This document shows positions 3,001 through 9,000 of a DNA stretch of 19,066 bases, piece after piece. The position numbers are program-made. This stretch comes from a virus. Its lineage: Duplodnaviria; Heunggongvirae; Uroviricota; Caudoviricetes. The stretch is from the IMG/VR virus record IMGVR_UViG_2698536657_000009; one strand, 5' to 3'. How positions within the stretch are numbered: position 1 is the first letter of the stretch; every line of letters starts with the position of its first letter.

Positions 3001-6000
3001 ACGGCTGACATTGCAGAACGGCTGTCTTTGACTACAGCCAGGGCAGATAAGTTATCCAGCCCTTTCAGTTTACCGTCGCTCCTTCCCTGCTCTGCCTTCA
3101 GGTTCATCACCGCCGTCTGCACGTCACGGATGAAGTTACTGACCAGGAATTCCGGGTTATACGACGTGTTCACCGTTGCCAGGAAGCGGTTAACTTTCCC
3201 CAGCGTACGGATTACGGCGTTACTGGTTTCCGGTCCCATATTCTTCATCGCACGCATCAGGCGCGGGTCATGGAGTTTGATGTAGTACGTTTTGCCGTTC
3301 TTTTTGGTGGTGAAGTACCGGTCTGCCATCATTGCCATCGCCACCGGACGCTCGACAACTTCGCGAATGGTTTCACCAGTTTCCTGGTCCTTGCGCTCTG
3401 CAATCACACGCATGGTATCCGGTCTGTCATCAGTGAATACCTGCCAGTAATCCTTGTCGGGATTATCCTGCACCAGTTTCAGGAAGGCGTTACCCACTTC
3501 GTTTTTGCGATGGCGGATCAGCGATTCGCTCAGGTCCTGTATCGCCTGAGTGGACGGAGACTGTGCACGGGATGCACGCCCCATGGCCTGCCTGCTTTCA
3601 CGTCCGCCGATGGTGAAGCCCTTACCTGTACGGGGCAGTGACACCACACCGTCAACATCCTGGCCTTTCAGGGGAACGTAGTAACGGTAGGCGTTCTGCC
3701 AGGCATCCACCACACCGCTCTCTTCCAGTCCGGCCTCACGGATAAGCTCACGGCGACGGGCCAGCATATCGTCAACAATCCCTGCCAGACGGTCATACTG
3801 TGCCTGTTTGCCGCTGTTACGCACACGCTGCATGATTTCCGCCGCCTCCGCGTTGGTCATCCCCGAACCGCCGTCCGGCATTTTCGGGTTGATTTTCGCG
3901 ATATGCGCGTTACGTTCCGGCGCGTGACGGGCGTAGAGGTACTCATCCAGATCGGCCTGCGCAATCTTATAGTCCGCCAGTAATTTAGCCAGCGGCTGAA
4001 CATAGCGCTCCTTCATCACGTTCAGGTCGTTTTCCGCCTTCCCGTGGAAGAGTTCTTCCGCCATATAAGCGTTGTTACTGTCGTCTATTTTTCCGCCAGT
4101 TTTACGGATATTCTCCTGAACAGCTTTCAGCACCTGGAATTTATCCTGCATCTGGCGCACAAAACGCGATGCAATTGTATCCTCCGGCGTCAGACTGCTG
4201 GTACGGGAGTAATACGGCCCCTTGCGAATATCCTCAGGATGTAGTATTTTAAATCCAGAGGAGCCGTTGATGGTGTTCGCCTCGGGCAATTGGAGCCCGA
4301 CTGCATGAAGCCATTCAGCGGCTTTTTCTTTATTAAGATACAGCAAAGATGTATCAAGCTGATCCTGCAAAGCACTCCTTTTGTCCTTTCCATAGGCACT
4401 GGCAATTTTGTTTATCTCTGCAAATCCATCGCCTTTCACATGGGTATGAATTGCAACAATGACAGGATTCCCTTTTGTATCGGTGGCCTGAATTAAAGAT
4501 ACCAACGCATCCGATTCAGTTTTCGAACGCATAACTACTACCGGATCTGTCAGAAGTTGAGGCAAATCAGCCAGTGTTTCCACTGACACAAAGTGTTCTC
4601 TGATCTCTGGTCTCGTAGCCTTATGCACAACAGATGCAGGCATAACCAGTTCAAGATCTGGTGCCCCCAATGCGCGCAAAACACGAGGCGTATCCCCAAC
4701 TCTGAGCATTTCCCTTCTGGAAACCGATTGTAATCCGGCAATGCGACGCACTTCTGAAGCAAACTGCTTTGCATCATAGGCGTCAGCCTTAAACGGATCA
4801 GGTTTACCACTACGGGAGTACTGAGACGATGCACCCACTCCATCCTCACGCGGTGTGTAACCTTCCCGCACACGCTGGCCTAACGTACGGATGGTCTCGC
4901 GAACAAGTCTGATATCGTTCAGTTCCGTCGGTTTCAGTAACCCCGTACGACGCAGTACCCCTTTGACCAGGGCAACAACACGCTCCCATGCCGCCACAAA
5001 TTTATTCGGCTGTTTCTCTGCCATATGCGCCAGAAATTCACCCGCCTGCACTTCCGGTGATTCCTTACCATAGGACGCATCAACCTTACGCCAGGCTTCA
5101 CGGATGGTGGCGTTATCACTGTCGCGGGTTTTCAGCACGGTTTTGATAATCGTCTGATATTCCGCTGGCGTGACAACATGCTCCATGGCATGGTGGATAA
5201 TCTCGTGACGCAACTTCTCGCGTACGGTCCGCCCGTCAGGGATGTTATCCGCCACCAGGACAATTTCTCGTTTATCCGGACGATAGAATGCGTGCACCCT
5301 GCCGTAACCATCGAACAATTCGCCCGCCAGCGCTTCAGCCTCTTTCTGTGACTTCACCACACGGACCTTCAGATCACTGTCCTTAATGCCGCTCATCACG
5401 CCACGGACAACCGCTTCAACCTGCGGGACCGGGCTGCCTTTGGCTTCCGCACTGCGGTTAACATCCGAAATGAGATTGCCTTCAGGTGTGCGGGTCACGC
5501 CCTTACGGGAATAAAACGCAACTCCCTTGTCCGTCTCACGGGTTTTCAGCGTACTGAACAGGTGATCGAATGCATCACGAATACCGCCATCCAGTTCCGC
5601 ATTCGTCGGATAAGCCCAGGTGTTATCTGTGTTGTGCTCAGGCGCCTTACGGATATTGACCAGATAATCATTCTCCACGCCAGCCATACGCGCCTTATCC
5701 TGAACATAACGCTCAAAGGCACGTGCCGCCATTTCAACATCCGTTGACCAGTACGGTTTTGAGCGCACCTCATCGAGAAGCGCTGAACGACGCGGCATGT
5801 CACTGTTTTTAATGGCCTGAATCACACCTTTAAAAGCGTCGTAAACCTCCTGACGTACCGGATATTCAGCATCAACATACCTGCCGTCTTTAAATATGCG
5901 CCTGACACGCTGTGCTTCCGTCATAAAGTCACCACCTGACGTAATTTTCCCGTCATTGGAAACGTCATAACGACCAAAATAATTATCCAGAGAATGGAAC

Positions 6001-9000
6001 CATTCGTGCGCCAGCGCACCCGGTCCGTTACCTTTTGTCAGGTTGATTGCCACCTCACCCGGCTCATAGTGTGCTGCCGCCTTACCCTTACCACGGGCAC
6101 CAAATGCCAGGCCAAGACGACCGTTCAGGGAAAGCGCTTTTGTCGGTACATTCAGTACTTCCGCAAGGTCATGCAGCGAGTCATAAGCCCGGTTCAAATC
6201 AGCCTGACGACGCGGACCTTCCACATAATTACCAAACTGCACACCACGGAAACCAAACGCATCACTGAACTGCTCCGGTGAAACATTCCCCTTGCGGCGT
6301 TCTGGTCCGGTACGGTCGCGGTTGGTGGCGTTGCGCTGCTCCTCACGCGAAATCTCCCGCATCTCCTTCACATGACGAACAAGCTCATCACGATGTGAAT
6401 CAATGTACTTACGCGCATCACTGGCTGACTTAAAGCCACCTCTCACCCGCATTTTGTTTTTACCGTAAGCGATAAAAATATCGCCACTGCGGGTATTCCG
6501 GTAAACGTCAAAGCGGATTTTGTCATCCGGTGACGGTGCTGTTTTTTCATCACCTTTCGCCTGTGATTTTTCCTCCTGCTCTGCAAACCAGACTTTCGCC
6601 TTTGTCAGTAATTCATCCCTGCTTTCCGAGAAAAAGAGGTTACTACCCTTATTGTCCTTATTGCGCAGTGAATAAAGTTTCTGTGGCGGATCGTAACGCT
6701 TCCCTCCTGCCGCCTGATACACACCCGATACCACCCGATAAGCAGAAGCCCTGTCCATCTGTGAGGGTGGCAGAGTGCGTAACAGTTGCCAGGTGTCCGC
6801 GTAACGGGAGGGCATTCTGCCTTCCATCCATTCTGCGAGGCGTTTCGCGCTGACCGTTCCGTTCAGCATTTCCGATACACTGTGTCGTACTTTTTTTATG
6901 CTCTCCCCCCAGCCTGCCGTATTGTGTTTCGTCTTCGCCGGAATATCGCTACGATACAGCGCTATCATTGCCAGGGTATCAGCATCGGCACCTTCGTTCG
7001 CCAGTTTTGCGTAGTCCGGTTTCGGGAACAGTTTGCTCAGCGGCTGCGTGGCATAATCCCTGTCTTCCAGCGTTTTACCCAGTGTTTCAGCAAGCTGTGC
7101 ATAACGGTGTTTGGCTGCCCCTTTAATTTCCTCGCCAAAGTCTTCAATTTTTTTGCCCCTGACTTCACCTCCGCGCACGGTAGCTTCCCTGTCAGTAGAG
7201 ACAGTTGTTTCAGATTCAGGTGCGATTGTCTCAGGCTGCGGGATGTCACGATTTCCTCCGGCCTGTCGGCGTACTTCTGCCTGCTGTGCAAGCTCAGGCA
7301 GTGAGTCCCGTACAGTGCGGGGAAGTGATTCAGGCTGAGGCATACGAACATTACGCGCAATGTCAGGAGCCGGTAGCCCTTCACGTACCGGTGCTGTCGC
7401 GTTCTGCGCATCCGGTGACGGCAGACCACGACGAACCATTTCACCCTCGAGTGTTTCCCCCTGGCGACCAGCGGCGTTTTCCGGTGCCGGAGCTTGTCCT
7501 TTCTGGAAACTCTGGCCCTTAACCTCACCGGTTGTGGTAAAACGACCACCACGTCCTGCCTGATTCTCATCCGGCGTACGCGCCACCTCTCCCGGTAACG
7601 GATATCCCTGTCCGGGATGAATATCGCCGGGAGCGGGCAGGCGTGGACGCTCAGTTAACTCCTGTGCTGTCGGACCGGCATCACCTTCAGCCATCTGTGA
7701 ACGTACAAGCTCCTCTGCCGTCGGCACGTTGCCACGGGCAAGGCGGGCCTGTACCTCCGTATCATCCCCCGTGAAACCACGGAATCGTGGGTCACGCATG
7801 AACGCGGGCTGCTCCATCGGGTCAGCATCAGCAATACGCTCTCCGTCAGCCAGGGTGTTAATGGTTTCCGTTGCCACATCTTCAGAGAACGCAGGATTAT
7901 CCATTTCAACGGCATACTGATTCTCGCCTTTCTTCACTACGGACGGTTTCAGGCCGGTGGCGGCGGCATTACGGAAAACATCACTCCCCATGGCGCTTTT
8001 CTCATCCGTGAAATAACGGTTGTCCGGGCGCACCTTTTCAATGCGTTCCGCTGGTCTGGACGCACCATTCCCGTTAATTTCAATGCGGACTTCATTCGGG
8101 TCCCGGAACCGCACCGTCGGGTAAATGCTCCCGTTACCATCCTCCGCATTTTCAGGCTGTGACTGTGCTTCCGGCGTCACTTCCTGTTGTGGGCGAATGA
8201 CTTCTCGTATTGCCTGAAACTGTTGTTCTTCAGTCTCGGTGCGCCCCTCTTTCTGGCTGAGTCTGCGGTATTCCTCAAGCAGTTCAGAACGCGGCTTCGC
8301 CTTCAGCTCATTCATCACAGCCTGTCGCTTCGCCTGTTCGTCCAGTTCATTCAACAACTGGCTGGCAGCTTCCCGGCGATGAGCTGCGGATGCGTCACCC
8401 TCTGTTGCCATATCCGCATCAGCATACTGCTCCAGAAGCTGCTCGCGATTCATGCCCTGCATGGATTCACGCTGCTGCGCCACCGGATCAACAGATTCTG
8501 GTTGCGGGGCTGCGTCGTCCTGCTGCACGGTTTCAGCATCACGCATGGCGGTTTCTTCTGCGGCCTGACGTCTGCCACGATATCCGGCAACCGCACCGGA
8601 TGGAGCCCCCATCGCAGCACCAAAGGCTGCACCTTCGATCGTTGCGTCAGCCACGCCCTCCCACGGTGACACATCCATTCCGGCGGTCTCACGCAATGCC
8701 GTGTTTTCCTGATAGCGTGAATAGCCGCCCTGCGCCGCATTAATCGCCCCCTGTTCCGTGGCATTTCTGACAATGCCGCTTTTAACGGTCTTCGCTGTGC
8801 CTCGTGTCACCAGATTAAACAGTTGTGCGTCACCCAGTTTTGCCGCCATGGCATTCACAGCCAGCAATTCAGGATCGGTTGCCAGCTGCGCGCGCACCTC
8901 ATCGGCAACACGCTCTTTTGCCAGATCCATTTTCTGGCGATCAGTAAGCTGTGCGTGCTGCGGGTCGGCGTCAATGGACAAAAACGTCTGCTGAAATTTC

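Follow-up and report, generated by a model that had tools for sequence, protein, structure and literature searches.

Two different zincin-type metallopeptidase domains are predicted in tandem within the giant polyvalent protein of short-tailed Shiga toxin phages

The 19,066-nucleotide phage sequence IMGVR_UViG_2698536657_000009 (Caudoviricetes; the whole stretch is called the window below) contains a giant open reading frame (ORF) whose 2795-residue product carries two HExxH motifs. We report that this protein, a virion-packaged polyvalent protein of short-tailed Shiga toxin (Stx) phages, appears to hold two different gluzincin-like zincin domains in tandem near its middle. Both domains are most likely active zinc endopeptidases, judging from the retention of every family-invariant catalytic residue, and on balance their role is probably limited proteolysis of the giant protein itself. 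The main elements are as follows.

1467..9854, minus strand: giant ORF, 2795 aa, cysteine-free, the largest ORF of the window (from the ORF list and translation).
5547..6314, minus strand: predicted zincin domain A, CLCA_X type, aa 1181-1436 (approximately 1181-1440), from a profile match and an AlphaFold model.
5994..6008 (read 6008..5994), minus strand: motif 1, HEWFH, aa 1283-1287, in the context GPGALAHEWFHSLD.
5985..6008, minus strand: motif 1 extended, HEWFHSLD, aa 1283-1290; family consensus G-[SC]-L-A-H-E-W-x-H-A-x-D.
4800..5447, minus strand: predicted zincin domain B, HExxxH family of polyvalent-protein metallopeptidases, aa ~1470-1685.
5193..5207 (read 5207..5193), minus strand: motif 2, HEIIH, aa 1550-1554, in the context LRHEIIHHAMEH.
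5190..5207, minus strand: motif 2 extended, HEIIHH, aa 1550-1555, one residue short of the family pattern LRHE[ILV][LIV]xH[YH]GL.

The initial annotation had noted two HExxH motifs about 267 residues apart, argued that well under one copy is expected by chance, and suggested one or two metallopeptidase-like domains. The pattern HE..H indeed occurs exactly twice in the protein, 267 residues apart; the residue numbers were right, and 5193-6008 corresponds to the outer edges of the two motifs. The chance estimate also held, as the protein's own composition (H 1.36%, E 7.1%) predicts 0.037 occurrences, and 20,000 shuffles gave one motif in 3.5% of cases and two or more in 0.065%. Because only about half of the HExxH occurrences in sequence databases lie within known zincin domains (PMC3650047), the motif count alone is suggestive rather than decisive, and the same figure is what speaks for both motifs being chance occurrences in a very long protein. 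Conservation is the stronger evidence. Both motifs are conserved in hundreds of distant homologues and lie on the helix where a zincin fold would place them; these data refute a chance origin, to which, with a shuffling probability of ~6.5e-4 for two or more motifs, we give next to no credence. As for the number of domains, there are two, each with a conserved His-Glu-His triad, a downstream Glu and an AlphaFold model best matching zincins. Both show two features of gluzincin-type zincins, namely a conserved HExxH on an alpha-helix and the succession of N-helix, three-stranded sheet, active-site helix and second helix. Among the checks proposed at the outset, a Pfam search returned no peptidase family for either catalytic core, whereas structure prediction gave zincins as the best PDB matches of both models and the search for a third zinc ligand led to conserved Glu candidates on the downstream helix of each model (E1374/E1381 in domain A, E1606 in domain B).

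Domain A was compared with its homologues, 366 of which were retrieved with aa 1200-1450. Motif 1 was found in 115 of 120 homologues among the matches listed, down to 33% identity, the exceptions being mostly truncated fragments. In an alignment of 65 domain A sequences (A1), E1264, E1284, W1285, E1374, R1378 and F1380 were invariant, and H1262, H1283, H1287, D1290 and E1381 were conserved in at least 90%. The AlphaFold2 model obtained from A1 had a mean predicted local distance difference test score (pLDDT) of 86, with the following order of elements according to DSSP: N-helix (1213-1234), three strands (1248-1251, 1261-1264 and 1269-1272), active-site helix (1281-1297), an insert and a Glu helix (1372-1390). 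This last helix, which lies within the Pfam domain LPD1, bears the invariant E1374, R1378 and F1380 and the near-invariant E1381; in the model, E1374 or E1381 is a candidate third zinc ligand. The best PDB matches were zincins, the model resembling MtfA, anthrax lethal factor and the Pro-Pro endopeptidases (PPEP). Three further elements belong to this region.

6063..6074, minus strand: AHYE, strand 2 of domain A, aa 1261-1264, with near-invariant H1262 and invariant E1264 (A1 alignment, DSSP).
6258..6707, minus strand: Pfam LPD5, aa 1050-1199, E 8.8e-45; N-terminal accessory module accompanying zincin domain A.
5538..5777, minus strand: Pfam LPD1, aa 1360-1439, E 1.8e-23; apparent C-terminal sub-domain of zincin A.

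The family of domain A was identified with the NCBIfam profile NF041907 ("CLCA_X family protein"), which matched aa 1181-1436 with an E-value of 1.5e-43 over profile positions 3-245 of 250. The score of 149 bits lies under the curated 260-bit cut-off, which is tuned to stand-alone proteins of ~250 aa; at the sequence level the match thus shows homology to CLCA_X, without subfamily-level membership by the NCBI threshold. The CLCA_X match takes in LPD1 and the final ~20 residues of LPD5 (aa 1181-1439, window 5538..6314, minus strand), while the core between LPD5 and LPD1 is covered by no Pfam model in searches of the whole protein and of sub-segments at E<=10. As LPD1 is contained in this match and provides the helix that bears the Glu, it appears to be the C-terminal sub-domain of the zincin rather than an independent domain. 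The CLCA_X zincins, a family rich in phage and plasmid members, were defined in 2013 and are related to the self-cleaving CLCA protease domain (PMC3650047; PLoS One 8:e62272). Fig. S4 and Table S2 of that paper include gi 315274348 (Enterobacteria phage VT2phi_272, aa 1195-1467 of 2806), an orthologue of the domain A region, so that motif 1 had already been published as a prediction. LPD5 and LPD1 occur together in most domain A homologues, many of which are stand-alone proteins of ~330 aa with the layout LPD5-core-LPD1. One such LPD5-CLCA_X-LPD1 protein, of 336 aa, is encoded on a metagenomic phage contig of 59.9 kb (L002, 8001..9011), amid ~30 small unannotated genes and divergent from the terminase/portal module; the context of this solo gene is early-gene-like rather than that of a virion gene.

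For domain B, an exhaustive HMMER search with aa 1470-1747 retrieved 405 homologues at E<=1e-3. Most are part of proteins of 1000-6000 aa, mostly giant phage proteins, and some are solo proteins of 210-270 aa; a word-indexed protein search had returned just 22 close relatives, and with a profile, too, it gave only close enterobacterial ones. The regular expression HE..H matched only 8 of 144 homologues, but the resulting impression of a poorly conserved motif 2 was misleading, as alignment shows an invariant His and Glu with HExxxH spacing. In the alignment of 135 homologues, E1551 and E1606 were present in every sequence (135/135 each), H1550 and H1554 in 133 each, Y1595 in 125 and E1613 in 124, and 126 of the 135 carried HExxxH in the form LRHE[ILV][LIV]xH[YH]GL. 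By this alignment the family motif is HExxxH instead of HExxH, a point that the initial annotation had missed. The deletion of one residue in motif 2 was seen only in the Stx-phage lineage and its nearest relatives (7 sequences), all of which have the HH doublet. HEIIHH fits both spacings: H1554, which aligns with the family His, stands at the canonical i+4 position of HExxH, and H1555 restores the HExxxH spacing at the family's i+5.

The AlphaFold2 model of domain B (mean pLDDT 76.5, above 88 at model residues 1-140) has the same zincin topology as domain A, with an N-helix (1476-1487), strands 1496-1500, 1522-1525 and 1530-1534, an active-site helix (1541-1560) and a Glu helix (1600-1613), and its best PDB matches were again zincins. 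E1606, on the helix given below, is the third zinc ligand predicted from the model.

5016..5057, minus strand: Glu helix of domain B, PEVQAGEFLAHMAE, aa 1600-1613, with invariant E1606, plus E1613 (from alignment and model).

Foldseek comparison of domain B with viral models returned other phage polyvalent proteins. No Pfam model covered the domain in the giant protein or in 35 homologues, and a sub-threshold Peptidase_M76 match around motif 2 was the sole peptidase trace in Pfam searches at E<=10. Sequence and profile searches of the PDB (aa 1050-1750, profile A1 and profile A2) gave no match. Phage GenBank records contain domain B in 186 Stx-type phages, at 95-99% identity, and in 106 Vibrio phages, at below 60%; none of these records labels it a peptidase.

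An extra His shortly after motif 2 had been taken to indicate a SprT/ArdC-type arrangement, which would make domain B a SprT/ArdC/Wss1-type protease with three His ligands, acting on DNA-bound proteins. The additional histidines do not bear this out. The position of H1555 is Tyr (57 sequences) or His (48) in the family. The H1559 column is gapped in 66 of 135 sequences, and H1559 lies on the same unbroken helix as H1550 and H1554 and therefore cannot share a metal with them. E1606, by comparison, is invariant, and it is this distal Glu that makes domain B gluzincin-like and the likely third ligand. Furthermore, no Pfam SprT-like or MPTase-PolyVal hit was obtained with the segment (E<=10) or with 36 family members (E<=1), and folds of the lethal factor/PPEP type score much higher. 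We consequently rejected the SprT/ArdC assignment as highly improbable.

The two domains were also compared with each other. Alignment of A with B by hhalign gave a weak local match (probability 30%, E 5.6e-4) running from strand 2 to the HE helix and pairing AHYEP…INL…LAHEW with gaYxP…AdNl…LrHEil. Such a match is compatible with a shared fold and is no proof of a recent duplication; A and B have a common fold and perhaps a distant common origin, yet are treated as different families. An A-then-B tandem with 233-283 aa between the motifs was present in 19 of 106 sufficiently long domain B homologues, and three others had an A-type motif 371-411 aa upstream. Each domain was also found without the other.

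The protein that houses the tandem is a virion-packaged polyvalent (ejection) protein of short-tailed Stx phages, orthologous to those of 933W, VT2-Sakai (orf71) and phi24B (gp47). DNA identity of 90-99% to the giant ORF was found in 186 phage records, all of them short-tailed Stx-converting phages and relatives (VT2-Sakai, PA phages, phi191, P13374, Shigella Ss-VASD). In VT2-Sakai, orf71 is the final and biggest gene of the late operon and is labelled "hypothetical protein" in GenBank; the RefSeq name is "LPD5 domain-containing protein". The assignment as a polyvalent protein follows from LPD5, LPD1, MuF_C and LPD38, which are signatures of the "polyvalent proteins" of Iyer et al. 2017 (PMC5512222), and the two zincins, the late-operon context and the presence of an orthologue in the virion agree with it. 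That orthologue, phi24B gp47 (2811 aa), is plentiful in virions by proteomics and missing from the cryo-electron microscopy map, and has been proposed to be an encapsidated ejection protein (2026 preprint, 10.64898/2026.04.10.717836). The whole 2795-aa protein contains not a single Cys, which is very unlikely by chance at such a length. The absence of Cys fits a chain that has to travel unfolded down the tail channel and across the oxidising periplasm, and would support the ejection-protein idea. Downstream of the zincins lie two further Pfam domains.

4317..4613, minus strand: Pfam MuF_C, aa 1748-1846, E 5.9e-23; predicted BECR-fold RNase-like effector module, directly downstream of zincin B.
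1806..2423, minus strand: Pfam LPD38, aa 2478-2683, E 3.8e-48; phage-specific polyvalent-protein domain near the C-terminus, with a partial match to the PHROG 'DarB-like antirestriction'.

In the N-terminal ~1050 aa, a Pfam search found no domain. The stretch aa ~440-900 (window ~7150..8530, minus strand) is acidic and rich in Gln, Pro and Ala, and looks low-complexity or disordered. PHROG 26030 and 20690 are N-terminal-only versions of ~940-990 aa, lengths suggesting that in some phage records the gene was truncated or split at annotation. The region upstream of the giant gene encodes a homologue of the Lom/Ail outer-membrane proteins (Pfam Ail_Lom, E 2e-32; window 13517..14251, minus strand) and a second protein, in which a phage tail-tip fibre domain was recognised (E 6.5e-11; window 15258..16526, minus strand). 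Five other neighbouring ORFs (133-563 aa) had no Pfam match.

Comparison with VT2-Sakai orf71 (L001, 9962..18382) revealed ~99% identity except at aa ~20-130 and aa ~1681-1880, where identity was 39-53%. The second of these divergent segments (window ~4215..4814, minus strand) covers the linker that follows zincin B together with the entire MuF_C domain. Several diverged alleles of this cassette exist, every one of them still recognised as MuF_C by Pfam, a pattern suggestive of an effector-like domain that is exchanged as a module or diversifies. MuF-C is a family of predicted RNases with the BECR fold (Iyer et al. 2017, PMC5512222). The phi24B preprint calls it a metallopeptidase and bases a peptidoglycan-degradation proposal on it (10.64898/2026.04.10.717836); this places the "metallopeptidase" in the wrong domain, the zincins being upstream at aa 1181-1440 and 1470-1685.

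How might the tandem work? In both domains, zinc would be held by two His and a downstream Glu, and the motif Glu would activate water as a general base. The site of domain A would comprise HEWFH, the pocket residue Asp1290, His1262 and Glu1264 on strand 2 and the Glu-bearing helix of LPD1; that of domain B would comprise His1550, Glu1551, His1554 or His1555, and Glu1606. The giant protein may then be cut by its own zincins, in cis or in trans, within the capsid or after ejection. This would release modules, for instance the neighbouring MuF-C RNase-like domain with its variable alleles and the LPD38 part at the C-terminus. Cleavage of host proteins may be a second job. Self-processing is supported by context, as the variable MuF-C cassette lies just downstream of the peptidase, and the eukaryotic relative of CLCA_X, the CLCA protease, cleaves itself. 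The A-then-B tandem, moreover, recurs among domain B homologues. Limited self-proteolysis, the reading favoured here, follows the processing rationale put forward for polyvalent proteins at large (Iyer et al. 2017, PMC5512222).

Several observations weigh against this reading. A literature search found no experiment on any member of either family; zinc binding, catalysis and substrates are what we infer, and the co-location of the ligands in both domains is deduced from topology and fold matches of the models. Both domains also exist on their own (the ~330-aa LPD5-CLCA_X and 210-270-aa domain B proteins), which purely cis self-processing does not explain, since there is no polyprotein to process. 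The literature held nothing on processing of the Stx-phage giant protein beyond the phi24B preprint, in which gp47 cleavage is unreported, and N4 virion RNA polymerase, itself equipped with a domain of this kind, goes into the virion uncleaved (Iyer et al. 2017, PMC5512222). Finally, the Stx-phage lineage has lost one residue of motif 2, replaced the conserved Gly after the His by Ala and changed E1605 to Gly; these changes could mean altered or lost activity.

A serious rival is that the zincins are injected effectors which, after ejection, cleave host proteins (of defence, envelope or regulation) instead of, or besides, the giant protein. We hold this to be a real but clearly smaller probability. 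The solo proteins of both domain types, having no polyprotein to process, speak for it, as does the position of one solo LPD5-CLCA_X gene among small early-type genes, although that context comes from one contig family. Among solved structures, the nearest folds belong to proteases secreted as toxins or effectors (lethal factor, PPEP, botulinum neurotoxin), and host targets were named as an alternative by Iyer et al. 2017 (PMC5512222). Yet no candidate substrate is known, and a mid-chain place between modules of a 2795-aa protein fits processing equally well. One or both domains could instead be catalytically dead scaffolds, zincin relics serving folding, packaging or protein binding as the N-terminal domain of lethal factor does. 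The lineage-specific changes in motif 2 leave some room for this, but relics normally lose catalytic residues, whereas every family-invariant one is kept here and across homologues down to 20-30% identity, and the HH doublet keeps the HExxxH spacing despite the deletion; with all invariant residues retained, dead scaffolds are unlikely.

Degradation of peptidoglycan, letting the ejection conduit cross the cell wall, is what the preprint proposed for phi24B gp47 (10.64898/2026.04.10.717836), and a likely ejection protein must indeed cross the periplasm. That proposal rests on MuF-C as the peptidase, a domain that is BECR-fold and RNase-like according to Iyer et al. 2017; Pfam and NCBIfam profile searches detected no domain of the lysozyme, transglycosylase, M15 or M23 type; and the structural neighbours of the zincins are protein endopeptidases, not cell-wall peptidases. 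We therefore rejected a peptidoglycan hydrolase as very improbable. Returning to self-processing, a more specific version can be offered tentatively: the tandem zincins may be a self-processing cassette that cuts beside the swapped MuF-C and releases a strain-specific RNase-like effector into the host during or after ejection, with the change from HExxxH to HEIIHH a Stx-phage-specific retuning of the metal site. By analogy this is conceivable, and we would put it well below self-processing as such.

This work is consolidation and not discovery, as a 2013 paper had already presented domain A of an orthologue and the family of domain B fits a variant class known since 2017. The additions are a residue-level mapping of both zincin domains, the tying of CLCA_X (2013), the polyvalent metallopeptidase clade (2017) and Pfam LPD1 to one domain, the one-residue loss, restricted to the Stx-phage lineage, that turned HExxxH into HEIIHH, corrections to the SprT/ArdC and "MuF-C metallopeptidase" interpretations, and the finding that neither catalytic core lies under a Pfam model. 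Short-tailed Stx phages are vehicles by which Shiga toxin spreads among pathogenic E. coli, and their largest virion protein is still called "hypothetical" or "LPD5 domain-containing". Precise targets for mutagenesis are now available (E1284, E1551, H1283/H1287, H1550/H1554/H1555, E1606 and E1374/E1381), with which self-processing of the ejection protein and attack on host proteins can be told apart.

Among known systems, CLCA_X (Lenart, Pawlowski et al. 2013) is matched end to end by domain A, which has the HExxH and downstream Asp (D1290, at least 90%) of that family; its members lie mostly in phages, prophages and long proteins, as here. Domain A differs in being embedded in a 2795-aa chain with LPD5 before it. 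The Asp after HExxH was considered a possible zinc ligand in CLCA_X (PMC3650047), whereas our fold matches suggest a gluzincin-type Glu (E1374 or E1381). The zincin-like metallopeptidases of polyvalent proteins, including a HEXXXH variant, were described by Iyer, Burroughs, Anand, de Souza and Aravind (2017, J Bacteriol 199:e00245-17; PMC5512222). The architectures are alike, with LPD5, LPD1, MuF-C and LPD38 and more than one metallopeptidase per chain. Their phage clade is marked by a conserved His where strand 2 ends and by an Asp placed three residues beyond HExxH (PMC5512222); compared by described features only, domain A agrees with this clade (H1262 at the strand 2 end, D1290) and the family of domain B with the HEXXXH variant. 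In that work LPD1 and LPD5 are separate domains of unknown function and the clade is not tied to CLCA_X, and the HEXXXH helix of Stx phages differs from the variant in being one residue shorter, giving HEIIHH. To the gluzincins anthrax lethal factor and Pro-Pro endopeptidase (MEROPS M34, ATLF-like) and MtfA (M90), sequence identity is only 7-15%, and domain A has a ~75-residue insert between its two active-site helices; the likeness, as modelled, is one of fold and predicted mechanism, not of family membership. The C-terminal metalloproteases of the SprT/Spartan/Wss1/ArdC type, three-His minimal zincins, also have the zincin core and an HExxH helix, and ArdC-type domains are frequent in polyvalent proteins. 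Lastly, a peptidase followed directly by a swapped effector-like cassette is reminiscent of the releasing peptidases of polymorphic toxins.

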